Source of the DNA: Blastocatellia bacterium
GTDB taxonomy: Bacteria; Acidobacteriota; Blastocatellia; UBA7656
DNA: 64,000 nt
Direction of reading: 5' to 3'
Assembly: GCA_035315885.1 (NCBI GenBank)
Contig: DATFXM010000194.1
Span: 44,825 to 108,824, forward strand
Shown here one piece after another: positions 4,179 through 59,947 of this stretch (its first letter is position 1; every line of letters starts with the position of its first letter). Under the pieces are notes generated by a model. That model made no database searches and was not told where the DNA came from. It saw nothing but the letters and a program-made list of their open reading frames with translations. Both the position numbers and the translations under genes were made by a program.

Positions 4179-4359
4179 GGAGTTCTGAGTTCTGAGTTAC
4201 CGAGTTCTGAGTACCGAGTTCTGAGTACCGAGTTCTGAGTCCCGGGCTGCCGAGTTCTGAGCCCTCGATATCCTGTCTTTTGTCAACACGCCGTCATCAA
4301 CAGGCCGTACTCACTGAATTCACCGCTCAAGCTAAGGACTCAGAACTCGGTACTCAGAC
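4179..4359. repeat. Hairpin element 1: left arm of ~13-nt tandem repeats (CGAGTTCTGAGTA x5, variants TT/CC), ~75-nt core, right arm ACTCAGAACTCGGTACTCAGAC (reverse complement)
   Basis: Direct reading of both arms. The tkt stop codon (TGA on the minus strand at 4354-4356) lies in the right arm. Confidence 0.8.
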
Positions 4360-6225
4360 CTCGAGAAGCGCCTTGACCAGCTTCACGATCGCTTTGCGAT
4401 CGATTCCATGAACTGCGAGAAGCTCTTCAGGCTTTCCGGACCGCGGAAGATCCCGCACCCCAAGCTGGTGGACGCGAAGACCTGAAGGCGCAACCGCAGA
4501 AGCGACTGCATCGCCGATGCCTCCAAGCATCGAGTGATCTTCAACGGTGATTATCATGTTGTTAGTGTCGCGGCCGGCGGAGCGCAAAAGCTGTTCGTCG
4601 ACCGGCTTCACCGAAAAGATATCGATAACTCTCACCAATATGCCTTCGCCCTTCAGTTGATCGTGCGCCGCCAGAGCCTCGAACAGCGTAACGCCTCCCG
4701 CTACGATCGTGACACGATCCTGATCGCTTCGCCGGACCACCTTTGCACGTCCAAGCTGAAATTTCTCATCGCTCGCATACAACACTGGAGTCTTCGGCCT
4801 GCTTGTTCTGATGTACACGATCCCGTGATTCTCGGCGGCCAGGCGCACGGCTGCTTCTGCCGCTACAGCATCCGAGGGGTAAAGCACCGTCGAACCCTCG
4901 ATCGCCCTCATCATCGCAAGGTCCTCGAGCGCCATTTGTGAAGGCCCATCCTCTCCTATCGAAACTCCGGCGTGTGAGCCGCAGAGCTTCAGGTTGGCTT
5001 GTGAGATCGCAGCCATCCTGATCTGATCGTAAGCTCGAGTAAGAAAGCAGGCGAAGGTTGATGCGAACGGGATCTTGCCCGAGGCGCTCAGGCCGACAGC
5101 CGCGCCTATCATGTTCTGCTCGGCGATGAATGACTCGAAGAATCGCGTAGGGTGCGCCTTCAGAAACTTCTCGGAGAACGTAGAGTTCTTTGTATCACCA
5201 TCGAGCGCCACCACCAGCGGATTTGTATTGCCAATCCGCGCCAGACCCTCACCGTATGCCTCGCGCGTTGCAATCTGGTCTCCCAGGTTGTACGAAGGCT
5301 GATGCGGAGCCTGCACGGCGCCTGGCGGATTCACCACCGTGCGCCCGTCGGGCGCCTTCATCGTCATCCGCCGGCCGTCGATTTTCGGTTCCAGCTCGGC
5401 CAGCGCGCGCTCCATCTCCTCGCCCTTCTTGAACGCTTTGCCATGCCAGCCGTTCTTGTCCTCAACGAAAGAAACACCCTTCCCTTTTTTGGTCAACGCC
5501 ACGATAACCGATGGTTTGTCTTTGATCTCTGTCGTCTGATCGAGTGCCGCGACGATTTGCCGTATATCGTGACCATCGATGACAACTGCGTGCCATCCAA
5601 ATGCCTCGAAGCGAGCCCGGTAGATTTCGCCGTTGTGCTCGTACATTGTCCGCTGGCTCTGCCCCAGCGCGTTGACGTCCACGATGGCTACGATGTTGTC
5701 CAGCTTGTGATAGGAGGCCATCGCGGCGGCTTCCCAGATCGAGCCCTCGGCTACTTCCCCATCTCCCATCAAAACAAAGATGCGGTTGTCGATTCGATCG
5801 AGAAAGCGGGAATTGAGAGCCATTCCAACGGCGCATGAGAGTCCCTGTCCGAGCGAACCGGTTGCGACTTCGACCCACTTAAGGCGTGGCGTGGGATGGC
5901 CCTCGAGATCACTGTCGATCAATCTTAGGGTCTTGAGGTGTTCAACAGGAAACGCTCCTGCTTCGGCCCATGCGGCGTAGAGCAGAGGAGCTGCGTGACC
6001 TTTGGAAAACACGATCCGATCGTTGAGCGGGTTCTTGGGATCGTTGACCTCGTACCGCATGCCGTGGAAAAAAACGGCCGCGGTCAGGTCTGCGGCGGAC
6101 ATACAACTCGTAGGATGCCCGGAACCGGCTTCCGATGTAGCGACGATCGAATCTACTCTGAGCCTGTTCCCCATTGCTGCAAGCGCTTCATACAAATCGT
6201 GATTCATTTTCGCAGACTGTTCCAT
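4354..6225 (-). CDS. tkt: Transketolase
   Basis: 623 aa; TPP-binding GSGHP..; transketolase pyrimidine-binding and C-terminal domains recognisable. Confidence 0.93.
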   Translation of the reverse strand: MEQSAKMNHDLYEALAAMGNRLRVDSIVATSEAGSGHPTSCMSAADLTAAVFFHGMRYEVNDPKNPLNDRIVFSKGHAAPLLYAAWAEAGAFPVEHLKTLRLIDSDLEGHPTPRLKWVEVATGSLGQGLSCAVGMALNSRFLDRIDNRIFVLMGDGEVAEGSIWEAAAMASYHKLDNIVAIVDVNALGQSQRTMYEHNGEIYRARFEAFGWHAVVIDGHDIRQIVAALDQTTEIKDKPSVIVALTKKGKGVSFVEDKNGWHGKAFKKGEEMERALAELEPKIDGRRMTMKAPDGRTVVNPPGAVQAPHQPSYNLGDQIATREAYGEGLARIGNTNPLVVALDGDTKNSTFSEKFLKAHPTRFFESFIAEQNMIGAAVGLSASGKIPFASTFACFLTRAYDQIRMAAISQANLKLCGSHAGVSIGEDGPSQMALEDLAMMRAIEGSTVLYPSDAVAAEAAVRLAAENHGIVYIRTSRPKTPVLYASDEKFQLGRAKVVRRSDQDRVTIVAGGVTLFEALAAHDQLKGEGILVRVIDIFSVKPVDEQLLRSAGRDTNNMIITVEDHSMLGGIGDAVASAVAPSGLRVHQLGVRDLPRSGKPEELLAVHGIDRKAIVKLVKALLEV

Positions 6226-6243
6226 TTAGACTCTCCGTTGTGT

Positions 6244-6366
6244 AGTGCTGAGTGCTGAGTCCTGAGCTGCCGGATCTTGCGTGCTGACTTTCTCAAATCT
6301 TTTTTGTGCTCAGCGGCTGTGTTCAGATACTCAGCACTCAGCACTCCGCCCTCAGGACTCAGAACT
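6244..6366. repeat. Hairpin element 2: arms GTGCTGAGTGCTGAGTCCTGAGCTG / CTCAGCACTCAGCACTCC..CTCAGGACTCAGAAC around a ~40-nt core
   Basis: Heptamer tandem (TGAGTGC/TGAGTCC) inverted arms. Contains the stop codon of the Tmk-like gene at 6352-6354. Confidence 0.8.
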
Positions 6367-7092
6367 TCTGTCTTCTACCCGCCTCAGCAATTGCCCGATC
6401 CGGCGCTGAAGAAGCCGATAAATAATCTCGGGTCGCTGAGTCGCATCGATCACCTCGAATTTGTATTCTTCCGCAAGCGAGTCGAATACCCCAAGCATCC
6501 TGGTCTGATAGGCAACGAAACTGTCAAAAAGATCCCGCCCAAAGTGCATGTCCATTCCAGATTCCCAGTAGTCGAACCCTGTAGGGCTGCCCAACACTCG
6601 CGGGATCAAATCCGGTACGCTTGCACGTAGATAAAACACTGAATCCGGCTTCAACGCCAGACCGTAAAACGATTTTATCCACGTCGGGTCAAGCCCACGT
6701 ACGATCCCTCTCGCGATCAGCGAGTAAATATAGCGATCCGTAAGTACGATAAAACCGGCTCGCAGCGCTGGGATCATCTGGTTCTCGAGCCGGTCCGCAA
6801 AATCGGTCGCGTAGAAGAGCGTCAAGGACACCGGCCCCAGCGTGATTCCCGCTTTGGCCTGCTTGATTCCCTTGCCCGCCAGCGCTGATCTGGTCATGCC
6901 GGTATCCAGTACCGCATGCCCATTTGCTTCGAGCCACGGCTTAAGCAGAGCAATTTGCGTAGACCTGCCGACTCCGTCCGGACCCTCGATCACTATCAGG
7001 CGGCCCTGCAACTCAGACAGATCCACGCCCGGCAGACCCGTGTCGTAAAACTCAAAGCGGTGACCGTCCATTCGTACTGTCATACTCTTCAA
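6352..7092 (-). CDS. Thymidylate kinase-family protein, paralog 2 (P-loop Lys replaced by Arg: GPDGVGRST)
   Basis: Tmk-like fold: G-x-D-G-x-G-(K/R)-S-T Walker A, DRYIYS (DRY motif), long LID region. The lysine of the P-loop is replaced by arginine, suggesting an impaired or altered kinase. 3-bp gap to paralog 1 indicates co-transcription. Confidence 0.7.
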   Translation of the reverse strand: MKSMTVRMDGHRFEFYDTGLPGVDLSELQGRLIVIEGPDGVGRSTQIALLKPWLEANGHAVLDTGMTRSALAGKGIKQAKAGITLGPVSLTLFYATDFADRLENQMIPALRAGFIVLTDRYIYSLIARGIVRGLDPTWIKSFYGLALKPDSVFYLRASVPDLIPRVLGSPTGFDYWESGMDMHFGRDLFDSFVAYQTRMLGVFDSLAEEYKFEVIDATQRPEIIYRLLQRRIGQLLRRVEDRSSES

Positions 7093-7094
7093 AT

Positions 7095-7805
7095 CTAAGC
7101 GAAGAATTCAAACTCTGGCACCGGGTGCCTCGGGACACCTACTAGCTGCCGCTCCACGATCGACCTCACTTCGTTTTGTTGCTCCTCGATCGGCCGCGTC
7201 GCATCGATCACCGTGAGGCCAAACTCGGGCACCATCTGCTCGTACCGGTCACGAATCATCCCTTGAAAGATTCGAAAGCTCTCCTCGATGTCGTCGCTCA
7301 AGCCCAGGTCCATTCCCGCCTCGTAGTACTTCAACCCGGCTCTGGCGCCGAGTATACGTTTAAGGGAAACCTCGAGAGGAACTCGAAAATAAAACGCCAG
7401 CGTGGGCTCTACCGCGAACTTGTACAGTTCGCGCACCCACGCCGCGTCTACACCGCGCGCAGTGTCACGCGCAAACGCGGTGAAGATGTAGCGGTCTGCC
7501 AGCACAATTGCTCCGGCCTTAAGCGGCGGTATTATGTGCCGCTCGATTCTATCTGCCAGGTCTGTCGCGTGAATGAGAGAAAAGGTAGTCGGCGTGAGCA
7601 TCTGCTTTTTCTTGCCGCGTCGTGTAGTCTCTCGAACCAGCGGCGACGAGTTCCACTCGCTGAAGAAGACAACGTACCCTTCGCGCCTCAGCCATTGTTG
7701 AAGCAGGCTTAGCTGCGTGGATTTTCCCGAGCCGTCGATGCCTTCAACGATGAACAGCTTACCCGGGAACGTTTGCTCGCCGTGCATCACCATTGCCGGT
7801 TCCAT
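7095..7805 (-). CDS. Thymidylate kinase-family protein, paralog 1 (canonical P-loop EGIDGSGKST)
   Basis: Walker A GIDGSGKST; DRYIFT; LID with Arg residues; 236 aa. Confidence 0.75.
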   Translation of the reverse strand: MEPAMVMHGEQTFPGKLFIVEGIDGSGKSTQLSLLQQWLRREGYVVFFSEWNSSPLVRETTRRGKKKQMLTPTTFSLIHATDLADRIERHIIPPLKAGAIVLADRYIFTAFARDTARGVDAAWVRELYKFAVEPTLAFYFRVPLEVSLKRILGARAGLKYYEAGMDLGLSDDIEESFRIFQGMIRDRYEQMVPEFGLTVIDATRPIEEQQNEVRSIVERQLVGVPRHPVPEFEFFA

Positions 7806-7829
7806 AGAGGTTTGTCTCGAGAAGATCGG

Positions 7830-8579
7830 TCAACCAAGACGTCGAATCAGCTCCCTGGAAAGCGCGCCGTAGTCTTCGGCCGCGTCGCTGCCGGGAGCGT
7901 ATTCGAATACAGATTTGTGCGCCTCTTGAGAGTAATCCAACTCGGTTCTCTCTCGTATCACAGTTCGAAATATTCTTCCTGGAAAAAGCTTCCGGGCTTC
8001 CAGCCGAACTTGTTCCGGCCCGGCTCGCCGCGTGGTGTAGAAGGTCATTACTACACCGGTCCGGTCGCTGTCGATTCTTGCATCGCGTGTATGAGTATCC
8101 ACAAACTCTATCATCTGTTCTATGGACCTGAGGCCGAGCCACGTCGAGATACACGGCACCAGCAGGTAATCCGAGACAGCAAGGGCCGCGGAAGTTGAAC
8201 GTCCAAGCTCCGGAGGACAGTCGAACAGGACAAAATCGTATTGCTCGTCGGTCCCCGAAAGCGCGTGTCGGAGGGGACCGCTCAATGCACCGAGGCCGTC
8301 AGCAGACGAAATGAACTGCCAGAGTCTACGACCGCCGCTCGGAACGATGGAGACATTCTCCCGGACCTCGGTTGGCCTGAACGAACCGCCTTCCACCGCT
8401 GACACCACCGTGCCGCGACCATGATCCACACCCGCGAGCATCCGAAGATTGTCCTGCGGATCGAGGTCAACTAGCAGTATTCGCGCACCAGCAAGAGCTA
8501 AGCCGAATCCAAGATTCCAGGTCGTGGTCGTTTTTCCAGTGCCGCCCTTGGACGCGGCAATCGCGATCCGTCTCGCCAT
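7830..8579 (-). CDS. Orphan ParA/MinD-family P-loop ATPase
   Basis: Deviant Walker A SKGGTGKTTTT, LVDLDPQ, and Walker B region DFVLFDCPP. No adjacent parB (canonical parAB is at 38861..40490). Confidence 0.8.
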   Translation of the reverse strand: MARRIAIAASKGGTGKTTTTWNLGFGLALAGARILLVDLDPQDNLRMLAGVDHGRGTVVSAVEGGSFRPTEVRENVSIVPSGGRRLWQFISSADGLGALSGPLRHALSGTDEQYDFVLFDCPPELGRSTSAALAVSDYLLVPCISTWLGLRSIEQMIEFVDTHTRDARIDSDRTGVVMTFYTTRRAGPEQVRLEARKLFPGRIFRTVIRERTELDYSQEAHKSVFEYAPGSDAAEDYGALSRELIRRLG

Positions 8580-8652
8580 CAGGCTGCCTTTGTATTTTCA
8601 GGACTGTTCCAGACTCCGAACTTGACCCTGTGCGGAGCCTGAGCCCAAATTC

Positions 8653-9864: not shown

Positions 9865-9990
9865 TTAGTTTGTAACGGGCCTGATCTTGAGTCAGTATAA
9901 CACAGCGCTATTGTGTGGCTTAACGTCACCTGGCGCAGGCTGACCTTCAACTCGAAGTAAGGCCGCCCGCGAACGAACGCACAAACGAAA

Positions 9991-10017: not shown

Positions 10018-10045
10018 TCACTAACTTGTCCTGCCTGGGTTTGAT

Positions 10046-11701
10046 CTATTCGTGTTTGGCATCGCCAATGCGCGACGAAGCCCTGGTCCGCACGAAGTCT
10101 TCCACCAGCTCTTTCGCGCGCGGGATCTCGCTTATCCCTCGAAGGAATTGCGCGTCGCCTTCGTTCAACACGCCGCGGGCCACCTCCTGCCCAAAAGCCG
10201 CGGTGGCAACCTCGAAGCGAATCTGACGCTTCAACCACGCAGCATCCTTGTCGACTTTGGTCTCGTCCATCTTGAGATCTTTGTGCTCGCGCAGGAAGGT
10301 CTTGAACGCCGTAAGCACTTTGTCGTCGACCGGGAAATCGCTCGGCGCCAGACGGTGAAAATGATTGGCGGTTTTGTCGATTCTAAAGGCTGCAAAGCCC
10401 GGAACCTGACCCGCGACTAGCGACCTGGTGAACTGGAACACCGGTTCAATCCAAACTCGCTGAAGCTCGAACTCGTGAGCGGGAATCTTTACCGAAACGT
10501 CCGGAGCGATTCCGCCTCCGCCATAAACGGTGCGGCCGTTGTCGGTGTGACGCTCGTCGCCCTTCTGGACTGCTGCCTTATCTCCTCGGCGCAGGTAGTA
10601 GTCATAGAATGAACGCCCGCTATAGTCGCGCTGAATCAGACGGCCGCTCGGAGTGTAGAAATGCCCGGTCGTTAGCGTCAACCCTGAACCATCCTTGAGC
10701 GTGAACACGCTCTGAACGAGGCCCTTGCCGAAGCTGTTTTCCCCTACGATTCTTGCGCGGTCGTGATCCTGAAGCGCCCCCGCAACAATTTCCGAAGCAG
10801 AAGCCGACCCCCGATTGATCAGCACTACAAGAGGATACTCTTCCGGATTGGTGTTGTTGGCTGCCGCCTCGCGAGTCGGAAGCACGTTTGGCCTCCCGCG
10901 AAGAGTTACGATCTTCTGTCCGCGGAACAGGAACAGGTTGGCGATACGCTGCGCCTGGTCTACCAGACCGCCTCGGTTATCCCTGAGATCCACGATCAGG
11001 GAAGTCATGCCCTGCTTTTTCAGATCCTCCATCGCCTCCATCATCTCGCGATAGGTGGTCGTGTTGAATCCGCGATTCAGGTTTATGTAGCCGATCCCTC
11101 CGGGCAGCGTGTAGTAGTTGGTTATCGAGGGCAGCGGAACAGTCTCGCGTACCAGTTTGTACTCAACCGGCTCGCTTACCCCGAGCCGCCCGACCTTCAC
11201 GGTCACCGGCGTTCCTTCCGCCCCGATGAGTTTGTTGGAGACCTGAGTAGATGACCAGCCTTCGGTGGAGTCGCCGTTGATCGCGACGATCTGGTCGCCA
11301 TAGCGGATGCCCGCCCGATGAGCGGGGGTTCCGTTGAAGGGCGACATTATATACACCTTGCCGTTTCGTCCGGCGATCGTGGCGCCGATGCCCGAGTAAC
11401 GGCTTTGCTGGTCGTTTTGAAAAGTCTCCCACTCTTTGGCGTCGAAGAAGTTCGAATGCGGGTCAAGCGTACGAAGCATGCCGCTGATCGAGGACTTAGT
11501 CAGGCGGTCGTAATCGATGTCCCCCGCAAAATGATCCTTTGCCACGAGGACGGCCTGAAAGAAATCATCCGCGATTTTCTTCCTGGCGGCCACATCGTCT
11601 TCGCCCTGTGAGGAAAAACGCTGGCCCGGATGTGCACCTGCAAAGGTAACCGGCAGCACCAGCGCCAGAACCAAAAATAGATATCGTTTGGATGTTCTCA
11701 T
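10046..11701 (-). CDS. Carboxyl-terminal processing protease (S41 family, tail-specific protease)
   Basis: Signal peptide MRTSKRYLFLVLALVLPVTFA; PDZ region; S41 catalytic block GSASASEIVAGALQD...SFGKG. Start trimmed from the ORF-track 11743 to 11701. Confidence 0.85.
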   Translation of the reverse strand: MRTSKRYLFLVLALVLPVTFAGAHPGQRFSSQGEDDVAARKKIADDFFQAVLVAKDHFAGDIDYDRLTKSSISGMLRTLDPHSNFFDAKEWETFQNDQQSRYSGIGATIAGRNGKVYIMSPFNGTPAHRAGIRYGDQIVAINGDSTEGWSSTQVSNKLIGAEGTPVTVKVGRLGVSEPVEYKLVRETVPLPSITNYYTLPGGIGYINLNRGFNTTTYREMMEAMEDLKKQGMTSLIVDLRDNRGGLVDQAQRIANLFLFRGQKIVTLRGRPNVLPTREAAANNTNPEEYPLVVLINRGSASASEIVAGALQDHDRARIVGENSFGKGLVQSVFTLKDGSGLTLTTGHFYTPSGRLIQRDYSGRSFYDYYLRRGDKAAVQKGDERHTDNGRTVYGGGGIAPDVSVKIPAHEFELQRVWIEPVFQFTRSLVAGQVPGFAAFRIDKTANHFHRLAPSDFPVDDKVLTAFKTFLREHKDLKMDETKVDKDAAWLKRQIRFEVATAAFGQEVARGVLNEGDAQFLRGISEIPRAKELVEDFVRTRASSRIGDAKHE

Positions 11702-11845
11702 CGTGACTAAGGCACTCCTCCGAACGGGTTGCTGATGTTCCATCTAACCCATCGCACCACTACGGGTCCTGCACCGGGTGGAACTGAATCCGCCAGCGAC
11801 AAGCTTGGGACAAGTCTAGCGGAAAGCACTCCCCAAGACAACACT

Positions 11846-12009
11846 ACTGAGTTCCGAGTACGCAGTAGGCAGTACGCAGTAGGCAGTAGGCAGTACGCAA
11901 TAGGCGTAGGCAGTAGGCTGCCTACTGCCTACTTCCTCTTTCCCCTTTCACGTTTTACTATTCCTCCGGGGTTCCGGTACTCAGGACTCAGAACTCAGAA
12001 CTCAGAACT
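11846..12009. repeat. Hairpin element 3 (two-tier): outer arms ACTGAGTTCCGAGTAC / GGTACTCAGGACTCAGAACTCAGAACTCAGAAC; inner arms (GCAGTAG/GCAGTAC)x8 / CTGCCTACTGCCTAC
   Basis: Nested inverted heptamer arrays read directly. Intergenic between ctpA and thiolase. Confidence 0.8.
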
Positions 12010-13232: not shown

Positions 13233-13240
13233 ACAGTAAG

Positions 13241-13337
13241 TACTGAGTTCTGATTCCTGAGTGATAAACCACCTCTCTCGGCTACTTAGTTTTCAGAACT
13301 CAGGACTCAGAAACTTAGAACTCAGGACTCAGAAACT
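13241..13337. repeat. Hairpin element 4: TACTGAGTTCTGATTCCTGAGTG ... AGAACTCAGGACTCAGAAACTTAGAACTCAGGACTCAGAAAC
   Basis: CTGAGTN-heptamer-based inverted arms. Lies between the thiolase stop and the rhomboid start. Confidence 0.75.
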
Positions 13338-14370: not shown

Positions 14371-15960
14371 ATGAGTCGACTGATGTTCGTTTACCTTTCC
14401 GGTTCCGAGAAGGGTAAGACCAGAATATACAAGCAGGACCGCGTGACTTTGGGGACGGCCGACTCGTGCGACCTCAAGCTTGTACCGAATGAGGGCGGCG
14501 AGCTGCCCGAAGGGGTTCTGGCCGAAGTCTACGAAGACAATGACGTCTTTCATCTGGTACCAAAGAACGACGACTCATTGAACATCACCGTCAACGGCGA
14601 GTCGGTCAACGGCGCACAGAAGATAGGTTACCCGCCGGGCCATGAACTCCGCGATGGAGACACGATTCAGTTCGGCCACGGCCGTTCGACCGCGAGCGTC
14701 TTGTTTCAGGTGATGCCTGAAAACTTCAGCACCGCGAGCCTCGCCCGCCGTGAGACCGAGCTCGAACACCAGGCCGCGCAACCCGTCCATCCTCTCACCG
14801 CGACCCTCTTCGTAAAGGAATTGAGCGCCAGTCTTTGGGCGGAGATTCCTCAACGGGCCAAGCGAATCAGTCTCGCGATCGTAGCGGTGACGATTGCAGT
14901 GGCGTTTCTAGTGCTGGCAATCGGCCTCATAACGCTGATTCGGAATACCAACAAAACCGATCGGCTCGCCGAACAGATCTACTCCGTGCAGAAACGCAGG
15001 GACCAGGACCAGGAGACGATCAAACAACAGCAGGAGGAAATCGAGAGACTCAGGGAGCTTAGCGATCAGACAAGACGATACCCTCAGAAGATCGCCGAGG
15101 TTTATAGCCCAGGCGTCTGCCTCATCGTCGGGAGCTATTCCTTTGTAGAGCGCGGCTCTGGCCGAGTGCTCCGCTATGAAACCGCTGACAATACAAACGA
15201 CGTCCCGGTAGACAAGAACGGGAACCTTCAAGCTTCGGTGGATGGCGCGGGCCCAGCCGTCCAAATCGACTACACCGGTACCGGTTTTGTCATCGATATC
15301 GGAATCATTGCGACCAACAAACATGTGGTTCAGCCGTGGGCTACCGATCAGCTCGCGCGGCTGATTTTGCGACAAGGCGGGGGCCTCGTTCCGAGGATGG
15401 ACGCGTTGCAGGCCTTTTTCCCGTCGATCAAGTCTCCGTTTGATCTGAAAGTGGCAGCCACCTCGGTAGGCTACGATGTCGCACTCTGCAGGTTTGAACC
15501 GCCGGCCTCCCCGCTCCCGGTCTGCCCGATGAGCGAAGCGGACCCCATCTCGATCATCGGCGAGCCCGTGGTTTTACTCGGTTATCCCACTGGAGTGGAC
15601 GGGCTGCTTCAGCGAATCGATGAAAACGAGCGGAGAGAGGCGATGCGAGGGCACGACATGGCGGCTCCAAGCGTGGCGGCGGCGCTGGCATCCCGGAATC
15701 TGATAAGGCCGCTGACCACCACCGGCACGGTGAGCGACGCCCTTCCCGGCCGGATAGTGCATACCGGTCAGACTACGGAAGGCGGTTCTGGCAGTCCGAT
15801 CTTCGATCGGGAAGGTCGCGTAATTGCTGTTAACTCGGCGGTGCTTGCGTCTGTCGACGGCGGCCAGAGCTTTGGCGGTTCGAATTTCGCGGTGCCGATC
15901 AAACCGGCATCCGAGCTGCTGAAGAATTATGACAAAGATAAGGCCAAAGTGATGCCGTAG
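14371..15960 (+). CDS. FHA domain - TM - trypsin-like (S1) serine protease
   Basis: FHA-like N-terminus (RVTLGTADSCDLKL..ITVNGESV..DGDTIQFG), one TM helix (LAIVAVTIAVAFLVLAIGLI), coiled coil, S1 triad TNKHVV / YDVAL / GGSGSPIF. The ORF-track upstream extension from 13837 overlaps the rhomboid gene and was rejected. Confidence 0.8.
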   Translation: MSRLMFVYLSGSEKGKTRIYKQDRVTLGTADSCDLKLVPNEGGELPEGVLAEVYEDNDVFHLVPKNDDSLNITVNGESVNGAQKIGYPPGHELRDGDTIQFGHGRSTASVLFQVMPENFSTASLARRETELEHQAAQPVHPLTATLFVKELSASLWAEIPQRAKRISLAIVAVTIAVAFLVLAIGLITLIRNTNKTDRLAEQIYSVQKRRDQDQETIKQQQEEIERLRELSDQTRRYPQKIAEVYSPGVCLIVGSYSFVERGSGRVLRYETADNTNDVPVDKNGNLQASVDGAGPAVQIDYTGTGFVIDIGIIATNKHVVQPWATDQLARLILRQGGGLVPRMDALQAFFPSIKSPFDLKVAATSVGYDVALCRFEPPASPLPVCPMSEADPISIIGEPVVLLGYPTGVDGLLQRIDENERREAMRGHDMAAPSVAAALASRNLIRPLTTTGTVSDALPGRIVHTGQTTEGGSGSPIFDREGRVIAVNSAVLASVDGGQSFGGSNFAVPIKPASELLKNYDKDKAKVMP

Positions 15961-18465: not shown

Positions 18466-18527
18466 GCTGAGTGCTGAGTCCCGAGTTCAACCCTTTTGGC
18501 GTTACCCACCAACCAGCACTCAGCACT
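18466..18527. repeat. Hairpin element 5 (shortest): GCTGAGTGCTGAGTCCCGAG - 25-nt core - CAGCACTCAGCAC
   Basis: Same arm sequence as elements 2 and 6. Ends 5 nt before the P5CDH stop codon. Confidence 0.75.
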
Positions 18528-18531
18528 TCCT

Positions 18532-20085
18532 TCAGTATTTCTCGGATACCGATTTAGCCTGAAGGAACAGCAACAAATAATCGCGGCCGCCGCCCTTGGA
18601 ATCGGTGCCCGACATGTTGAAGCCGCCGAACGGGTGTGCCCCAACCATCGCACCCGTACACTTGCGGTTCAGATAGAGGTTTCCTACGTGGAAGTCACGT
18701 CGAGCCTTCTCGAGCCGCCTGCGCTCCCCCGAATAAAGAGCCCCAGTCAAACCGAACTGAGTGTTGTTAGCGACGTTGAGAGCCTCATCGAAATCCTTCG
18801 CCCGAAATGCCGCCAGCACCGGACCAAAAATCTCTTCCTGGGAAATCCTGGCCATCGGATCCACTTCGCCGATCACCGTTGGCTTGATGAACCATCCTCG
18901 CTGATCCTCGGCCATCGGGCCGCCTCCGGCCAGCAGCTTTCCTTCGCCGCGTCCGATCTTGATGTAGTTGTTTATGCTCTCGTATGCACTCTTGCTCGAT
19001 ACCGGCCCCGTGAAATTCGACACGTCCTTAACCGGCCCAACCTTCAGCTTCGAAGCTCGATCCGACACTCGTTCCACAATCTTGTCATACACGGAGTCCA
19101 CCACCACGACCCGCGAACACGCAGAGCACTTCTGCCCGGAATACCCGAAGGCTGACGCAACTACTCCATCAACCGCAGCATCAAGATCCGCAGTCTCATC
19201 TACGACGATGGTGTCCTTTCCCCCCATCTCTGCGACGACGCGTTTGATCCAGATCTGTCCTTCGGCGGTCTTCGAGGCCAGCTCATTGATGTGCAGTCCG
19301 ACGTCCTTGGACCCGGTGAATGCAACAAAACGGGTCCGCGGGTTACCGACAAGATAGTCTCCAATCTTGCCACCGCTGCCCGGTACATAGTTCACCACGC
19401 CCGGCGGAACCGAGGCCTCTTCCAGAATCTCCACCAGTTTTGCCGCGATCACCGGACTATCACTCGAAGGCTTCAGTACAACAGTGTTCCCGCACACTAT
19501 CGATGCGAGAGTCATCCCTGCGGTGATTGCCAGAGGAAAATTCCAGGGAGGAATCACGATGCCCACGCCGAGAGGGATGTAGAACATCTCGTTGTGCTCG
19601 CCTGGCATAGGCGTGACTGGATGGTCGGCGGCATAGCGAAGCATTTCGCGAGCATAGAACTCGGCGAAATCGATCGTCTCCGCGACATCGGCGTCCGCCT
19701 CGGCCCAGGACTTCCCGACCTCGAGAACTATCAATGCGGTGAGTTCGGCTTTTCGCCTGCGAAGAATTGCCGCGGTCTTGAGAAGGCAGCGCGCGCGCAG
19801 GTCCGGCGCAACGTTCTTCCATTCCTGAAAGGCCTCGGTGGCGGCGGCTATCGCCTTGTCTGCATGATCGATGCTTGCTTTGTGCACGAGCCCAACGACT
19901 TCGTCAAAGTTTGAAGGGTTGAGCGAAGCAAGCATATCGCCGGTGGTGTAGCGCTTGCCGCCAATGATCAGGGGGTACTCAGTGCCCAACCGGGATTCGG
20001 CTACGCTTATGGCCTCGCGCATGGCCGCTGCGTTGCGTTCATTGGTGAAATCGACAAAGGGTTCGTTGTGAAATGGCGGCAGCAT
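18532..20085 (-). CDS. L-glutamate gamma-semialdehyde (delta-1-pyrroline-5-carboxylate) dehydrogenase, ALDH superfamily
   Basis: 517 aa; ALDH catalytic Cys region FGYSGQKCSACSR and Glu region VAEMGGKD; N-terminus typical of standalone P5CDH. Confidence 0.88.
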   Translation of the reverse strand: MLPPFHNEPFVDFTNERNAAAMREAISVAESRLGTEYPLIIGGKRYTTGDMLASLNPSNFDEVVGLVHKASIDHADKAIAAATEAFQEWKNVAPDLRARCLLKTAAILRRRKAELTALIVLEVGKSWAEADADVAETIDFAEFYAREMLRYAADHPVTPMPGEHNEMFYIPLGVGIVIPPWNFPLAITAGMTLASIVCGNTVVLKPSSDSPVIAAKLVEILEEASVPPGVVNYVPGSGGKIGDYLVGNPRTRFVAFTGSKDVGLHINELASKTAEGQIWIKRVVAEMGGKDTIVVDETADLDAAVDGVVASAFGYSGQKCSACSRVVVVDSVYDKIVERVSDRASKLKVGPVKDVSNFTGPVSSKSAYESINNYIKIGRGEGKLLAGGGPMAEDQRGWFIKPTVIGEVDPMARISQEEIFGPVLAAFRAKDFDEALNVANNTQFGLTGALYSGERRRLEKARRDFHVGNLYLNRKCTGAMVGAHPFGGFNMSGTDSKGGGRDYLLLFLQAKSVSEKY

Positions 20086-20173
20086 AGGAAGGTCCTTTCC
20101 AGAATTAACTTTTGTGCACGCAACTCAAACGATGAAGTTACCAACGGCTCTCAAGGGGAGTCAACGGCAGGAA

Positions 20174-20384
20174 GTGCTGAGTGCTGAGTCCTGAGCTCAG
20201 CCCCAACGGGGTTGCGTCTCAGGCCCAGGGTTGCCGTCCGCGGCTACCCTGGGAAAACGGCAACTGGGAAAACGGCAACGCGACGGACGCAACCCTGAAG
20301 GGGTTGCGTCAGCGACCTGCAAAGCGGCGATTCACACTACGATTACGCAACCCCGTTGGGGTTGAACTCAGCACTCAGCACTCC
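20174..20384. repeat. Hairpin element 6: arms GTGCTGAGTGCTGAGTCCTGAGCTCAG / GAACTCAGCACTCAGCACTCC around a ~165-nt core that is itself structured (17-bp perfect IR CCCCAACGGGGTTGCGT/ACGCAACCCCGTTGGGG; 2x GGGAAAACGGCAAC)
   Basis: Read directly. Supplies the stop codon of the VOC gene (TGA complementary to 20368-20370). Confidence 0.8.
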
Positions 20385-20799
20385 CTTCAGCGCCTGCCAC
20401 CGTCAAACCGACTTCCTGGCCAAAAGAAATCTCCAACGTGTGACCATCGGGATCTCGAATCAACGCCCAGTAACCGACCGGAGGACCTGAATCGGTCGGA
20501 CCATCAACCAGCGCCCCTTCCAAACGCGCCGCGTTACATAACCGATCCACTTCTTCTCGTGACTCGCAACCAACACCCAAATGAGCCATCGGTAGCAAAG
20601 GGTGCGTTACTCCTTCGCACTTGATCAGCACAATCACAAACGGACGAGTCAGATCGCTTATCCACACAACATCCGACCCGGTGTGCTCATCCGTCCGGCG
20701 ATGAACGATCTTCATCCCCGCGTAGCTTTCATAAAACGTTACGCTCCGCTCAATGTCCGTAGCCGGAAGAGCTATGTGCGTGAAACCTATGTCGGACAT
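20368..20799 (-). CDS. VOC (glyoxalase/bleomycin-resistance/dioxygenase) family protein
   Basis: 143 aa; paired beta-alpha-beta-beta-beta modules with metal-ligand-like H (FTHIAL) and E (HTLEISF). The last 6 codons and the stop are encoded by hairpin element 6. Confidence 0.7.
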   Translation of the reverse strand: MSDIGFTHIALPATDIERSVTFYESYAGMKIVHRRTDEHTGSDVVWISDLTRPFVIVLIKCEGVTHPLLPMAHLGVGCESREEVDRLCNAARLEGALVDGPTDSGPPVGYWALIRDPDGHTLEISFGQEVGLTVAGAEGSAEC

Positions 20800-25588: not shown

Positions 25589-25786
<198 letters not shown>

Positions 25787-25791
<5 letters not shown>

Positions 25792-26878
25792 TCAGTGGTC
25801 GATTAGGAGTGCCGCCGGCAGGAGGCGGTGGTGGGGGAACGCCCGGAGCGTTTGGAATGGGCCGAGTACCTTGATTCACTCCCGGCTGAATGAGACGCGG
25901 CATGTACATGAAAACCCAGTCTTCGTACTTGTCGAGCCCATAAAGTGGCTTGATAGCCTTACCCTTCAACTTCGGCGCGACTCCAATAATCGGAGCGTTC
26001 GAACGACCGGGCGTATCATTCGAGAAGAGATGCGCGAGCGGATCGGCAAAGTTCTCATCGTCGTCGTCATCGTCGTCGTCGTCATCGTCCGCATCCGCGT
26101 TGGGCTGCACTTTCGGCTTCTTGCCAGGCTGACCGGGCGGACCCTGCTGGCCACCCCTCGTGCCGCCAGGTCCCGGAATCTGCACCCCTTGCTGTGGAGG
26201 CTGCTGCGGCTGAGCTCCCGCAGCACCGCCCGAGCCGGGTGGACCGGCCTGAGAATCGGGACTCGTACCAGGGATCTTGGCCAGGTGGAGTTTTTGAGGC
26301 GGACCTGCAATCAACAGATACTGCTGAGGGATTACAATCCCGGTCTCCGCAGCATAAGCCTGCAGGACCTTCATTATTCGAGGATCGCGGGCTCTTACTG
26401 GCTCCCACTCGACGTTGCTCATCGGGTCGATAAACGCCGACGGCCGGACAAACTTGATATCTCTTGTGCCGATTGTAATGCCATCCCTGAGCTTCTTCAG
26501 ATCAGTCAAATAGCCATACTCGGGTGGAACCAGCAACTGAAGAGGATTCGCCGCTCCTCGGCCATAATAGCGGGCGATTCCTATAGCCATCTGTTCCCCG
26601 CGAAAAACCAATTCCAGCTCTTTGTCCCGCTGGACCTGCATCCTCACGTTGGGAATGATTGCAGAAGAAAACAGGATCGCCATGACCGACAACGCCAGTA
26701 TCAGACCCAGAAGTGCCCACCCGCCTTCTTCGCCGGATCTGGATTTCATCCCGCCGTTGTTAGCCCTCGCGTTCTTGTTCGATAGAAACGAAGGCATGGG
26801 CGTATCGCCGTCGAAGGGCTCTGTGACCCTGGAGACGGGACGAAGTCTCGATCGTTTTGTTTCTGCCGGCGTCATCAC
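25787..26878 (-). CDS. GspK/PilX-like minor pseudopilin-like membrane protein with Gly/Pro/Gln-rich low-complexity region and poly-Asp tract
   Basis: N-terminal [19 protein letters not shown] resembles the T2SS GspK pseudopilin helix (G-M/W-A-L-x-x-V/L-L-L-A..), followed by a ~200-aa domain, PGQPG-type low complexity and 13 consecutive Asp. Confidence 0.5.
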
Positions 26879-38860: not shown

Positions 38861-39679
38861 TTAATCGTCAATGGAGTTGAGGACGTTCTCAAGGGTTTCC
38901 TTCAGCTCTGCCTTGGAGACGTGGGCCTTCCGAAACTTCAGGGTGAGAGACCAGGATTGAGTTGGCGGGCTGTATCTGAATGTATAACCTTCGGGACGAT
39001 CCTGACGGCCGCTTCGAAGCTTTCTAGCGTCATCGCGATTCAAGCCTCTGCTCTGCACGCTGTCAATGAATCCTCGCATCTCCTCTTCAGTAGGTTGACG
39101 CACAACTTGCAACAGCATCGACTTCGAACTTATGTCGGCACGCCGACATAGATCTCGTATGTCATGCGGAAGCGTAGCGAGCGACATCGACTCAGTGATC
39201 GAGCTTCGAGATTTGCCGATTCGCTTTGCCATCTCTTCGTGCGTATAGCCGAAGCGCTCGGCGAGAGTTCTCAGTCCATCCGCTTCCTCGAACGCAGTGA
39301 GATCCTTGCGTTGAAGGTTCTCGATCAACGCGATCTCTGCCACCGCGCGATCGTCGACGTTCATCTCGATACACGGCACCTCCTTCAATCCAGCCTGCAG
39401 ACTCGCTCGATATCTCCGCTCGCCGCTGATGATCATGAAGCGACCGCCGACTTCACTTGGTCTCACCAGCAACGGTTCGAGAACTCCTTTCTCCCTGATG
39501 GAAGCTACCAGCTCCTCCAGGTCCCCTAGCTCCATTCTCGGCTGCTCGGGATTAGGCTCAAGCTTCTCGATCGGAATCATCCGTCCGATGTATTCGCCAG
39601 ACGTCCTGCCCGCGAGTTGTTCCACGTAGTGAGCGTCGTGACGCAGTTTGAAATTGTTCGGCAGTCCCCTCTTAGACAC
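38861..39679 (-). CDS. parB: Chromosome partitioning protein ParB
   Basis: ParB box GERRYRA; HTH; 272 aa. Confidence 0.9.
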
Positions 39680-40490
39680 GCTGCATTACCTCCTGACAAA
39701 GGCTCGAATATTCAACCGCCCCACTTGAACTCGGAGCAAAAGTAAAAATCGGTTCTTTGTAGGCTGGGCTCTCCTCCAGCCTCACCGACTTGCTTATCAC
39801 CGTTGTAAACACCTTGTCGCCAAAAGTTTGACGAATTTGTTCAAGAATATCTTTAGCCAGAGTCGTGCGCCGATCGTGAAGCGTTATCAGTACGCCTAGC
39901 ACTTCAAGTTTTGGATTAGGTCTCGCCTTCACCTTCTCCACCGTGTCCAGCAAATCATCCGTCCCCTCGAGCGCGAAGTATGACGGCTGGATCGGTACGA
40001 TCAGGTAGTCTGCAGCCACCAGCGCGTTCACCGTAGTCAGACCCAGCGTCGGCGGCGTATCGATGATCACGTACTCATATCGCGGAATCAGCGGCGCTAT
40101 CCGGTCCTTCAGCCTGAACGGCGCATCGAACTCCCCTACCAACTTGCTTTCGAACTTCGCCAGGCTGATCCGCGACACGATGAGGTCGAGTGCCGGAATC
40201 GATGTATGGCGAATCACGTCATCCGGAGACAGAGTTGCCTCGGTCAGCATCTCATAAACCGAGTTCTGCTCTGGATCATGTTCGACAAATGCGATGGAAC
40301 TGTTGGCTTGTGGGTCCAGGTCGATCAAGAGAACCTTCTTTCCTTGAAGCGCCAGACCCGCTGAGAGGTTGATTGCCGTGGTTGTCTTTCCGACACCGCC
40401 CTTCTGGTTAGCGATGGCGATAATCAATCCCGTAGGACCTCCCCTGCTAAAAATCCCCAGCATCCTAATTGCGATGCCGCAAAGTGTCAA
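39672..40490 (-). CDS. parA: Chromosome partitioning ATPase ParA/Soj
   Basis: [10 protein letters not shown] deviant Walker A; 8-bp overlap with parB. The true start is probably internal (MLGIFS...). Confidence 0.9.
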
Positions 40491-47569: not shown

Positions 47570-47974
47570 ATGCTGATCATCCTGCTCGTTTTGGTTGCGG
47601 TATTCGTTGGGATACTGGCCGTGCACGGTTACAAACAGTGGAGGGTGCGGCTTCTGCAAAAGATACACGACAACGAGTACAACGCTGCGGTCACGATATG
47701 GGAATATGGGCGCATGGTGAAGAACGAGGTTGAAGCTGCGGTACGGGCGAGCGGCGGTGCACTTGACTTCAAGAGGCTTGCGGTGCCGCACAGCCCGGGG
47801 TACAACGTGTCGCTGGAGATGATAGGCGCTTACTTCAGGGTCTATGCAGTACCCAAGAAGTACAAACGTACGGGGACGCTGTCATTCCTGACCGACAGCA
47901 CGCTGAGCGTCAGAGCCGCCGACCGCTCAGGCCAAAACGCGACGCCGGAAGATGATGAATACCGTGGAGATTGA
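47570..47974 (+). CDS. Hypothetical membrane-anchored protein (134 aa)
   Basis: N-terminal TM MLIILLVLVAVFVGILAV. No other motifs. Confidence 0.4.
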   Translation: MLIILLVLVAVFVGILAVHGYKQWRVRLLQKIHDNEYNAAVTIWEYGRMVKNEVEAAVRASGGALDFKRLAVPHSPGYNVSLEMIGAYFRVYAVPKKYKRTGTLSFLTDSTLSVRAADRSGQNATPEDDEYRGD

Positions 47975-47976: not shown

Positions 47977-48296
47977 GGGGATTGGGAGATGAGGGGATGA
48001 GGGGATGAGGAGAGGCGGAGAAGGGGCGAACGGTCGACGGGGCGAACGGTCGATGGGAAGCTTCGGGAGAACTTTTGCGGTCTTTGCGAATCTTTGCGGC
48101 CTTTGCGTGAAAACCCCAACGTTGAATGTGCTCGATGGCGGGAGCAGCCAGCCGTGTTACCGCTGTTCGTCGCAGGCAAGAGTTGGCCTTTCACTCAAAG
48201 GCCGCAAAGATTCGCGAAGATCGCATCAAAGGTTTTCTCGGAATCTTTCCTGTCGCCCCTTCGCCCATTTGCCCCTTCGCTCGTTCTCCTCATCCG
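47977..48296. repeat. Hairpin element 8 (largest, ~320 bp): imperfect ~115-bp inverted arms built from (GATGAGGG)x3, (GGCGAACGGTCGAYGG)x2 and (CTTTGCG-N2-3)x4 around a ~65-nt core
   Basis: Reverse complement of 48181-48296 aligns with 47989-48114. The ends (GATGAGGAG...GCGAAGGGG and GCGAATCTTTGCGGCCTTTG) are conserved and the middle is diverged. Confidence 0.75.
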
Positions 48297-48310
48297 CTTA
48301 CTAAAGAAAA

Positions 48311-54170: not shown

Positions 54171-54173
54171 GTC

Positions 54174-55268: not shown

Positions 55269-55282
55269 CTGATTAACTCAAT

Positions 55283-56377: not shown

Positions 56378-56519
56378 AAACCGACATTCTACACGAGGAC
56401 GCACACGAGGGGCGAAGCCCGCAGGGCGAAGAAATGACCCGGAGACCTTGCGATCTTTGCGTCAAAGCCTGACAAGCGATAGCATACCCGCGCGTCAAGC
56501 CAGCCCCTTGGAGAAAAAC

Positions 56520-57530: not shown

Positions 57531-57594
57531 TAAGACTCTGACCGGATCTGATTAGTGAAGCTTACTGCCCGCGCAGACTTGGTGGCGTTGCGAT

Positions 57595-58395: not shown

Positions 58396-58404
58396 AGCAC
58401 TCCC

Positions 58405-59193: not shown

Positions 59194-59226
59194 TGTATTC
59201 GCTCTCCGAAAAGATTAGCTTCGCAT

Positions 59227-59685
59227 TCAGTCGTTCATGATGATGGAGTTGATGCGATCGCCTGCCCTGATCTGTTGCACCACGTCCATGCCGTTTGTGA
59301 CACGTCCAAAAACGGCGTAGTTCATATCCAGAAACGCGGCTGGTCCGAGCGTGATGTAGAACTGGCAGGAAGCGCTGTCAGGCTGTTGAGAGCGCGCCAT
59401 TGCGAGCGCACCGGCATCTCCGTGTTTGAGTTCTTTCGAGACTTCAAGCTTGATGCGCCGCTCGCGCCCGGTTGCCGGGTCAATGAAGCCACCGGTGCCG
59501 TTGCCGATGGGACAGCCGCCCTGAATAACGAAGCCCGGCTCGTGCCGGTGGAATGTGAGGCCGTCGTAAAAACTTCTGCCTACCAGGTCAATGAAATTTC
59601 CTGTGGTAATTGGTGCTTTATCCTCGTAGAGCTCCACGGTGATGGGGCCTTTGTCGGTGTCGATCGTCGCTGTCCTGTTTGCCAT
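59227..59685 (-). CDS. Cyclophilin-type peptidyl-prolyl cis-trans isomerase
   Basis: [17 protein letters not shown] motifs; 152 aa. Confidence 0.9.
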
Positions 59686-59756
59686 CTTTTATGCTCCTCC
59701 TTTCCTTAAGTGGGAGTCTGGACTCTAGCACATTCAATCTGTGAATCACGAGTTGC

Positions 59757-59947
59757 GTGAGTAGGGATGAGGGGTGAGGCGAAGGGGGCGAAGTCGGTTT
59801 CGGGTTTAGGGTTTAAGGTTTCGGGGTTCATCTGATTCAGTAGCCTTTCGTCGAGTAATGCTCGCCATCCGAGTCTCTATCTGACGAACCCGAAACCCTA
59901 TACCCTAAACCCGAACCGACTTCGCCCTTTCCCCTCATCCCTCTCAA
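59757..59947. repeat. Hairpin element 9: arms GTAGGGATGAGGGGTGAGGCGAAGGGGGCGAAGTCGGTTTCGGGTTTAGGGTTTAAGGTTTCGGGGTTC / reverse complement, ~55-nt core
   Basis: Long inverted repeat made of GATGAGGG, GCGAAGGGG and GGTTTAG/GGTTTAA heptamer tandems; shares units with element 8. Confidence 0.8.

Follow-up and report, generated by a model that had tools for sequence, protein, structure and literature searches.

Inverted heptamer-repeat hairpins with G-rich first arms in the gene spacers of a Blastocatellia-like acidobacterium and of diverse metagenome contigs

The gene spacers of a 64-kb stretch of contig DATFXM010000194.1 (the window, all of which was analyzed) contain nine hairpin elements, numbered here 1 to 9 in order of position, whose arms are short tandem repeats, mostly heptamers, in inverted orientation. 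Judging by protein similarity, the host is a Blastocatellia-like member of the Acidobacteriota, and a cyanobacterial origin is rejected; the window transketolase is 71-72% identical, and its pyrroline-5-carboxylate (P5C) dehydrogenase (P5CDH) 84% identical, to proteins of Blastocatellia metagenome-assembled genomes (MAGs). The elements are probably palindromic simple-sequence repeats of the type called short tandemly repeated repetitive (STRR) sequences, which are remodelled in place by slippage, are occasionally copied, and would form stem-loops when transcribed. Many contigs from soil metagenomes and planctomycetes, as well as predicted viral ones, show the same design, and we therefore regard it as a repeat class that is real and widespread although little described. 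Bacterial heptamer repeats were recognized 35 years ago, and we know of no accepted origin or function for them. Any model now faces two hard constraints: the G-rich arm comes first, which applies to repeat arms only, and the hairpin starts at a stop codon, 0-10 nt past it. Both the polarity rule and the stop-codon start were missed in an earlier account drawn from the letters of the window alone (the sequence-only reading).

The architecture which that reading had described at the nine sites is confirmed. Tandem Repeats Finder (TRF) reports arrays at every site, with period 7 at eight of the nine (element 8 has other periods), and alignment of the arms shows that the right arms are indeed reverse complements of the left, in pairs of 23-57 nt at 78-96% identity. 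With arrays of one unit family facing each other, a long stem-loop can form on either DNA strand and in any transcript. When each element is folded as RNA (RNAfold), the minimum free energies (MFEs) for elements 1 to 9 are -81, -57, -72, -31, -31, -138, -112, -193, and -116 kcal/mol; this range of -31 to -193 kcal/mol lies far past that of shuffled sequence, and whole-spacer folding z-scores reach -7.7, -9.2, -13.9, and -9.1. A strict inverted-repeat detector finds seven clusters in the window and only zero to two (mean, ∼0.5) in 20 dinucleotide shuffles. With the same detector, inverted repeats with periodic arms number four in this 64 kb and five in 1.40 Mb of comparison sequence, which comprises 82 loci (80 tkt loci of other genomes and two copies of one Blastocatellia P5CDH locus). 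An element occupies 9 of the ∼29 window spacers of at least 40 nt. The sequence-only reading was also right that elements 2, 5, and 6 have common ends, with 25 identical nucleotides at the left ends of elements 2 and 6 and 19 of 22 in element 5, and that cores are element-specific, as no pair of cores scores z > 3.

Seven of the elements lie between co-directional genes and two between divergent genes; none is present in any of the five convergent spacers of the window. The seven co-directional elements start 0-9 nt past the upstream stop codon, or over it, and end 3-112 nt ahead of the next start. They had been called strictly intergenic, which has to be amended, since the gene-proximal arms of elements 1, 2, and 6 enter the 3' end of the upstream open reading frame (ORF) by 7-16 nt, and in each case the stop codon of that ORF is a TGA within a heptamer unit (4354-4356, 6352-6354, and 20368-20370). 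Positions and strands were also counted in a set of 99 repeat-armed hairpins taken from metagenome contigs (L083-L202) and the window. In this set, the distances from inbound stop codons to the hairpin that follows peak at 1-5 nt, with one inbound gene in 59 of the 99 and two in 5 of the 99. The commonest size of the CTGAGTN hairpins is 4 + 4 units with a median loop of 16 nt, within a range of 2 to >20 units per arm and spacers of -3 to 325 nt. A G-quadruplex was considered as the reason for the four-unit preference and is rejected for CTGAGTN, which has no G-tracts; single arms alone are essentially unstructured. At the variable seventh base of CTGAGTN, arm-to-arm complementarity is 46.6%, compared to 45% after permutation, and stems are therefore often mismatched every 7 bp.

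These hairpins have a marked polarity. Whichever strand is read, the 5' arm is almost always the G-rich array: across all repeat-armed hairpins the ratio is 103:12 after deduplication (p = 3e-19). Adjacent inverted pairs of CTGAGTN occur as 5'-(CTGAGTN)n...(NACTCAG)m-3' in 65 cases and in the reverse arrangement in two (35:0 in a first pass), an independent set of predicted viral sequences gives 22:4 for the same unit, and 45 unit families other than CTGAGTN together give 43:7. In the window, all 13 left arms, nested ones included, have more G than C. Inverted repeats with non-periodic arms serve as the control and show no bias, either in the same loci (82:74) or in unrelated genomes (79:78). 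As non-repetitive hairpins are unbiased, the polarity belongs to the repeat arms and not to hairpins generally, and selection acting on hairpins at large is accordingly disfavored as its cause. Stop codons are not a sufficient cause either, because families lacking a stop in both arms still show 22:6. Single arrays that adjoin a stop codon follow the same rule, with the G-rich strand being the sense strand in 21 cases and the antisense strand in none.

The sequence-only reading implied that the elements were specific to one lineage, which is not what we find. Elements 2, 5, and 6 contain in their arms the 20-mer GCTGAGTGCTGAGTCCYGAG, which at least 120 metagenome contigs carry as well; these range in G+C content from 0.44 to 0.75, and in many of them an inverted array follows from a few to 150 nt further on. 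One such contig (L116) belongs to the Planctomycetota (Tepidisphaeraceae), its prs product being 87-88% identical to proteins of Phycisphaerae/Tepidisphaeraceae MAGs. The motif is also present in 33 stretches of predicted viral contigs, including a 41-kb contig with about twenty hairpins, and unpaired (TGAGTGC)n arrays are found in plasmids of Erwinia, Burkholderia, and Nostoc; plasmids of Kovacikia and Legionella gave weaker, uninspected matches. The 20-mer was not found in 82 loci of other named genomes. Dozens of other families of 7- to 8-mers build similar hairpins in the same contigs, and in the related loci period 7 dominates (395 of the 685 arrays of period 6-10). A 33-mer that had appeared to be a single "master" sequence common to several phyla was set aside, as the next unit proves variable once locus selection is allowed for, and it is not evidence of horizontal transfer.

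At positions 8900-9700 of contig Ga0335083_10003254 (L087), a tRNA cluster (His-Trp-Glu-Glu-Lys) has a heptamer hairpin in all four of its spacers, three of the (GGACTGA)n family and one CTGAGTS. Over positions 1-6300 of contig Ga0308414_1000716 (L110), kilobases consist almost wholly of ordered blocks of 7- to 8-mer arrays in a recurring order (GATTTTC / CCTCCGTG / AGTCCTG / CTGAACC / TTCGGGC).

Comparisons between relatives reveal rapid turnover. Two Acidobacteriota MAGs that are 98-99% identical and syntenic with the window around the P5C dehydrogenase gene (L211 and L212) differ in a (GTCCGTA)n hairpin, which has two units in the left arm of one and four in that of the other and a homogenized right arm; this directly supports the slippage that the sequence-only reading had offered as one possible generator. 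A second hairpin, after the tetratricopeptide repeat (TPR) gene, has been remodelled between the same genomes, with GGGTTCN units in only one of them. Orthologous spacers can also be compared among four Phycisphaerae genomes sharing the operon NTP-transferase/prs/rplY/pth/rpsF/ssb/rplI. The pth-rpsF spacer holds GAAGGAT, CTGAGTS, GAATGAT, or a non-repetitive hairpin beside a conserved leader motif; the ssb-rplI spacer holds the related units CAGTTGT, GAGTTGC, and CCAGTTG; and the NTP-transferase/prs spacer, which in one genome measures 98 nt and contains a CTGAGTS hairpin, measures 19, -4, and 5 nt in the other three. From the differences in both sets of genomes we conclude that hairpins are gained, lost, resized, and given new units in place. 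There is evidence too that whole hairpins are occasionally copied to new sites, in that one viral contig has three hairpins with a common degenerate unit and center, and the unrelated cores of elements 2, 5, and 6 are flanked by common arm ends, in which even a degenerate outer unit recurs. We note that many spacers of L211 and L212, the closest relatives syntenic with the window, also contain long (30-50 bp) near-perfect hairpins that are non-repetitive, some with duplicated arms (2958-3073, 4322-4819, 8193-8479, and 11555-11936); long spacer hairpins seem to be a general trait of the lineage, with the heptamer-armed ones being a form thereof.

A plausible course of events under the STRR-type reading is that both arms of an array pair would be born together in an inverted copying event at the DNA level, for which our best guess is snap-back template switching at a G/T-rich array. 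Each arm would then expand, contract, and homogenize on its own by replication slippage until it reached flanking coding sequence, and now and then a whole hairpin would be copied into another spacer. The hairpins are probably transcribed, since most separate genes of the same direction and those of one related contig separate tRNA genes, and the presence of a heptamer hairpin in every spacer of that tRNA cluster indicates that they are tolerated inside transcripts. Work on repetitive extragenic palindromic (REP) sequences of E. coli has described effects at the RNA level that include 3'-end protection and translation-coupled effects, which are likely alike for the hairpins here. We infer the RNA function throughout by analogy: as RNA, stem-loops directly after a stop codon could act as REPs, bacterial interspersed mosaic elements (BIMEs), and REPINs (REP doublets forming hairpins) do, through 3'-end protection, as processing sites, by partial attenuation of read-through, or by stalling terminating ribosomes. 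Many of the hairpins may nonetheless be nearly neutral passengers.

Several observations weigh against this reading or parts of it. Slippage is demonstrated, but the birth of the pairs and their polarity are unexplained; slippage alone accounts neither for the polarity nor for the modal 4 + 4 units or the occurrence of one heptamer in several phyla. G-rich arrays fold on themselves slightly better than their complements in nine of ten families, by no more than ∼3 kcal/mol and no better than shuffles, which leaves the snap-back premise weak. The behavior of the seventh base indicates that neither perfect pairing nor frequent copying from arm to arm is maintained. The paralogous copies within genomes point to a copying mechanism. 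Folding of the two strands does not help: for metagenome hairpins with one inbound gene, the antisense strand folds better in 37 of the 52 informative cases and the sense strand in 15 (counts slightly inflated by the duplicate contigs L129 and L175), an advantage that stems from A versus G at variable unit positions of the gene-proximal arm, so that the larger set does not argue for selection acting on the sense RNA. Enrichment of G-U pairs on the sense strand was considered as a sign of RNA function and was rejected on these grounds; it holds, and supports folding of the sense strand, for element 7, whose minus (sense) strand folds better by 20 kcal/mol, and for element 8, whose plus (sense) strand folds better by 38 kcal/mol, and it reverses in the larger set.

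How else might such hairpins arise? It is conceivable, if rather unlikely, that they are REPIN-like non-autonomous elements, inverted-repeat doublets that would be mobilized in trans, as single-stranded DNA, by an enzyme from another part of the genome, either of the RAYT/IS200 type (HUH Y1) or of some other kind, with single arrays being decayed halves. A REPIN is defined as two inverted REPs and a spacer that make use of a RAYT (PMC3116915, PMC3337134), and much here fits that description: hairpin doublets with short variable spacers, an extragenic location beside stop codons, no target-site duplication, a fixed arm orientation, single arrays that behave as half-elements (the 21:0 orientation), empty orthologous sites, and paralogous copies with common degenerate units in the viral contig and in elements 2, 5, and 6. 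The difficulty is that the unit families number 45 or more, with several found together in single contigs, that unit number varies between arms and N patterns are random, and that one unit is found in different phyla, unlike lineage-specific REPIN/RAYT pairs; moreover, the arms are tandem repeats and not a fixed 20- to 40-nt palindrome with a GTAG or CGTC tag. The RAYT/IS200-like generator suggested in the sequence-only reading is not borne out either, as no such gene is among the 50 window ORFs scanned and a tblastn search with E. coli RayT was negative in the window and in ∼1.1 Mb of loci selected for hairpins. There is a still smaller chance that the polarity, seen only where the arms are tandem repeats and extending over at least 45 unit families, at least two phyla, and predicted viral contigs, records a dedicated, undescribed DNA-level process that makes head-to-head repeat arrays in bacterial spacers. 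In that case the hairpins would have been left behind by a particular pathway of replication or repair, or by a mobilizing enzyme, and not by ordinary slippage plus selection. One version of such a process would be snap-back or template-switch synthesis working only from G/T-rich nascent ends; the other would be repeat addition, similar to telomere healing, to both ends of a break, followed by joining. The second version, with G/T-rich repeats added 5' to 3' to both 3' ends and with later breaks in the core adding nested pairs, is on its own very unlikely. It would explain why the polarity is specific to repeat arms, the unequal arm lengths and independent N patterns, the unrelated or absent cores (spacers down to -3 nt), the nested pairs of different families in elements 3, 8, and 9, and the empty sites free of target-site duplication. 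However, we know of no bacterial repeat-adding enzyme of this break-healing kind, dozens of unit families would need as many templates, and both arms nearly always belong to one family, a result that independent addition would predict only with a local template.

The remaining alternatives concern what the repeats are for, or where their ends come from. The arrays could be binding sites for a factor that recognizes, in a 7-nt register, either RNA or single-stranded DNA (a cold-shock-domain, S1, or CsrA-like protein, for instance, as has been proposed for TAACTGA repeats; PMC4679880) or duplex DNA, with the hairpin potential being secondary. Such a factor would suit the conservation of six core bases next to a seventh that is free and unpaired between arms, the recurrence of one heptamer across phyla, the modal four units, as in Xanthomonas, and the lack of structure in single arms. 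We nevertheless judge this improbable, because many factors, or a very loosely specific one, would be required to serve at least 45 unrelated unit families, no candidate protein emerged, and in the related loci homologous convergent pairs outnumber heterologous ones (77 versus 50) despite the many families, so pairing itself matters. Marginally less probable again is that the hairpins are intrinsic terminators, bidirectional or "I-shaped", or attenuators, a role that the sequence-only reading had put forward. Stable stems do start directly past stop codons, symmetric stems would work from either direction, and in four relatives some hairpin follows every gene of a ribosomal-protein operon. However, only the inner hairpin of element 3 (11906-11932) passes a scan for a hairpin plus a T-run; the T/U run expected after a G+C-rich stem is otherwise missing from the nine, and across the window sites of this kind are about as frequent as chance predicts (23, 20, and 24, compared to 19.8, 19.4, and 18.7 in shuffles). 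The five convergent spacers of the window are empty while two divergent promoter regions hold elements, and hairpins are found in tRNA-gene spacers and within ribosomal-protein operons, where read-through is needed. Just past the prc-like protease gene (10019-9989, minus strand) stands an ordinary G+C-rich hairpin of 14 bp that is followed by a T-rich tail, and the genome may thus also use conventional terminator-like hairpins. The least probable of these readings, and a very remote one, is that the elements are classical MITEs (miniature inverted-repeat transposable elements) derived from an insertion sequence (IS) with heptamer-iterated terminal inverted repeats. Bacterial MITEs such as Nezha and Correia/NEMIS are short, non-coding, and intergenic, have terminal inverted repeats, and are present or absent between relatives, and the elements here resemble them in all of this, including the common terminal inverted repeats of elements 2, 5, and 6 and presence or absence at orthologous sites. 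They differ in having no target-site duplication (flanking direct repeats of at least 3 nt occur in 20 of 97 cases and in ∼12 of 97 in the permuted control, with no preferred length), no conserved interior, and no constant length, arm lengths included; the contrast with a classical MITE drawn in the sequence-only reading therefore holds. Neither a transposase nor a parent IS with matching ends was seen in the window, and a G-rich-first polarity common to 45 unrelated unit families is not expected of MITEs. Under the favored reading, the elements are neither canonical terminators nor MITEs.

Mazel et al. reportedly described the cyanobacterial STRR heptamers CCCCAGT, TTGGTCA, and CAACAGT in 1990. 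The comparison with STRRs made in the sequence-only reading stands in that these are intergenic heptamer simple-sequence repeats, and (TGAGTGC/TGAGTCC)n is itself a direct array in a Nostoc plasmid. The closest precedent is provided by the convergent GGGAATC heptamer pairs of Xanthomonas. Rehm et al. (2015, PMC4692102) describe the GGGAATC repeats of Xanthomonas and the GGGGA(C/T)T repeats of Nostoc as simple-sequence repeats of heptamers that are dispersed over intergenic DNA and vary at one position. In Xanthomonas, each genome has 70-75 cases of two convergent arrays able to form a stem-loop; the repeats lie nearest the 5' neighboring ORF and mostly between co-directional genes, prefer four units, and differ in length and sequence between close relatives (PMC4692102). 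Head-to-tail 7-nt units, dispersal in noncoding DNA beside ORF ends, and convergent pairs are all found here as well, and since paired heptamer arrays are already published, our hairpins are not a new category. The units here are different (CTGAGTN, GCAGTAG, GGGTTTA, 8- to 16-mers, and dozens more), as are the hosts (Acidobacteriota, Planctomycetota, and predicted viral contigs), and there are many unit families per genome as well as nested pairs. CTGAGTN and GCAGTAG are without G-tracts, so a G-quadruplex cannot explain the four-unit preference here. The named units (CCCCAGT, TTGGTCA, CAACAGT; GGGAATC; GGGGAYT) and their hosts (cyanobacteria and xanthomonads) are not those seen here, making these repeats the same kind but not the same named families. 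The G-rich-first rule is neither stated nor tested against ordinary hairpins in the Xanthomonas report (PMC4692102).

The TAACTGA repeats, found in Beggiatoaceae, cyanobacteria, and Bacteroidetes (PMC4679880), resemble ours, like the STRRs, in being intergenic tandem heptamers that adjoin ORF ends, are scattered over phyla, and form unstructured unit arrays. Those repeats are overwhelmingly single direct arrays, with one inverted case in 170 TAACTGA sets (PMC4679880), whereas 116 of the 213 CTGAGTN arrays of at least three units in the sampled loci have an inverted partner within 350 nt. By analogy, REPINs offer the closest model for a possible spread and effect of the hairpins. The likeness to REP, BIME, and REPIN elements (PMC3116915, PMC3337134, PMC3733652) lies in extragenic hairpin doublets with variable spacers and no target-site duplication, in singlets that resemble decayed halves, and in the location just past stop codons. 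The differences are that CTGAGTN arms start with (A)GT(G/C)CTGAG and have a variable number of units, with no fixed palindrome and no GTAG or CGTC tag (GCAGTAG units contain GTAG internally), that there are many families per genome and one unit across phyla, and that no RAYT was found in the searches described above. Our literature searches returned no description of such hairpins in Acidobacteria or Planctomycetes; they left most subscription journals uncovered, and an earlier description is possible, and searches with the heptamer sequences gave only primer noise. What we have not found described are the unit families, the hosts, the nested multi-family architecture, the abutment on stop codons, and above all the repeat-specific G-rich-first polarity.

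The window and its relatives provide a rich and tractable set, in which unit families are numerous, pairs may be nested, some sites are empty, and near-identical genomes differ in copy number. As the class spans Acidobacteriota, Planctomycetota, and predicted viral contigs, it probably shapes the intergenic DNA of abundant soil bacteria. There are practical consequences too, in that the hairpins break short-read assemblies, confuse the calling of gene ends because the repeats supply stop codons, and might be useful for telling strains apart. Should they function as stem-loops in RNA, they would determine how strongly the genes of an operon are expressed relative to each other, in phyla whose terminators and mRNA decay signals are poorly known.

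The nine elements vary considerably in length and complexity. Element 1 (4179-4363) has a left array of GAGTTCT/GAGTACC units with period 7/14 (4180-4261), a right arm at 4336-4363, and a core of ∼74-93 nt. Its unit had been given a period of 13, which is incorrect, as TRF reports period 14 (2 × 7; unit GAGTTCTGAGTACC, 4.1 copies, 95% matches) at 4187-4244; the arms found by inverted-repeat search (4215-4242 and 4336-4363) match over 28 nt at 96%, the MFE is -81.4 kcal/mol, and the spacer extends from the gap start (4067) to the transketolase stop (4354-4356, minus strand). Element 2 (6240-6366) occupies the spacer from the transketolase start (6225) to the stop of a dTMP-kinase-like ORF (6352-6354), with the left arm AGTGCTGAGTGCTGAGTCCTGAG (6244-6266), a 63-nt core, and a right array of (ACTCAGC)n (6329-6366). 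The TRF period is 7, the arms match over 23 nt at 87%, and the MFE is -57.2 kcal/mol (spacer z, -7.7). Element 3 (11846-12009) is nested and sits in a divergent promoter region between the starts of prc (11743) and a thiolase gene (12036). Its outer arms are CTGAGTTCCGAGTAC (11846-11860) and (ACTCAGA)n (11976-12009); inside them, nine copies of GCAGTAG/GCAGTAC (11857-11918) directly abut 2.9 copies of CTGCCTA (11918-11937) with zero loop, the inner arms being 20 nt long with 18 paired. TRF finds period-7 arrays at 11857-11918, 11918-11937, and 11979-12009, and the MFE is -72.2 kcal/mol. Element 4 (13239-13337), with arms GTACTGAGTTCTGATTCCTGAGT and (ACTCAGG/ACTCAGA)n, fills its spacer from 7 nt past the thiolase stop (13232) to 3 nt before the start of a rhomboid ORF (13340; Pfam); its arms match over 24 nt at 79%, TRF reports period 7 at about 13293-13337, and the MFE is -31.1 kcal/mol. 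The smallest is element 5 (18466-18528), whose arms GCTGAGTGCTGAGTCCCGAG and CCAGCACTCAGCACTTCC fold into a stem of ∼15 bp (MFE, -30.9 kcal/mol; spacer z, -2.8) in the spacer bounded by the start of the TPR gene (18443) and the stop of the P5C dehydrogenase gene (18532-18534).

Element 6 (20169-20386) occupies the spacer from the P5CDH start (20085) to a glyoxalase-like ORF with its stop at 20368-20370. Its outer CTGAGTS arms (20173-20195 and 20366-20383; TRF period 7) are extended to 39 nt by GGGGTTGCGT-type palindromes, giving arm matches of 39 nt at 92% and 21 nt at 95% and an MFE of -138 kcal/mol. The core (20196-20365) also holds three small palindromes of the form GCAACCCC-N4-GGGGTTGC(GT), at ∼20200-20217, 20290-20314, and 20340-20364, and a 15-nt direct repeat, CTGGGAAAACGGCAA, in 2.1 copies (20249-20279). 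Similar ACCCC-N-GGGGTTG palindromes are repeated at 15066-15276 of a Blastocatellia MAG (L081), beside reverse-transcriptase and Cas_GSU0053 genes, and the two sets of palindromes may represent a second repeat family, REP-like or CRISPR-related. Element 7 (25589-25791) pairs 5.6 copies of GCAGTAG (25589-25627), which decay toward the center, with 12.7 copies of CTACTGC/ATACTGC (25698-25786), and ends 1 nt from the stop of an ORF at 25787-26878 (minus strand); the TRF period is 7, the arms match over 57 nt at 86%, and the MFE is -112 kcal/mol.

Three nested arm pairs make up element 8 (47977-48300), which begins 3 nt past a stop codon (47972-47974) and ends 11 nt ahead of the next start (48311). 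The left arms are (GGGGATGA)n (47977-48021), 2.2 copies of GGGGCGAACGGTCGAC (48023-48057), and (TTTGCGGTC)n (48074-48112), and the complementary arms are at 48189-48225 and 48253-48298. TRF finds periods 8, 16, and 9-10 over 47977-48280 (47977-48107/48203-48280), the arms match over 46 nt at 78% and 37 nt at 92%, and the MFE is -192.7 kcal/mol (spacer z, -13.9). Element 9 (59757-59950), also nested, is in a divergent region between the starts of a cyclophilin gene (59685) and a pyridoxal phosphate (PLP)-enzyme gene (59981; Pfam). It has outer G-rich arms of GGGATGAGGGGTGAGGCGAAGGGGGCGAAG and its complement, and an inner (GGGTTTA/GGGTTTC)n array (59796-59825) that pairs with (AACCCTA)n (59887-59915); the TRF period is 7 (59796-59825/59887-59912), the arms match over 27 nt at 93%, and the MFE is -116.4 kcal/mol (spacer z, -9.1). 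The G-rich strand of the (GGGTTTA)n array (59796-59825) runs 5' to 3' toward the hairpin center, as does that of a (GGTGGCT)n array in a metagenome contig (L151, 468-491). The former unit is the plant-type telomere repeat, oriented as in telomere fusions, and the latter array includes the E. coli Chi octamer GCTGGTGG in every unit, oriented as for Chi recognition from a central break. These matches may be coincidence.

The window genes are an ordinary chromosomal set that includes tpi-pgk-gap, transketolase, thiolase, P5C dehydrogenase, parAB, a Xer-type recombinase, and RNase J. No transposase was found among the 50 ORFs scanned and no tRNA in a tRNA scan of the window, and an Rfam scan of the whole window gave zero matches at the gathering score, placing nothing in a curated structured-RNA family. 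The parA and parB genes are at 38861-40490 and the Xer-type recombinase gene at 36192-37070; GC skew is negative over nearly the whole window (cumulative, -1.48), and the minus strand carries most genes. The window is apparently on one replichore, possibly near the origin. An ORF at 29402-31180 (592 aa, no Pfam match) has internal tandem repeats of 15 nt (12 copies, 29825-30006) and 51 nt (2.3 copies, 30483-30597), and its product looks like a repeat-containing protein. Finally, two minus-strand dTMP-kinase-like ORFs (6352-7092 and 7095-7805), the first of which terminates within the right arm of element 2, adjoin each other and are apparently a tandem pair of paralogues.

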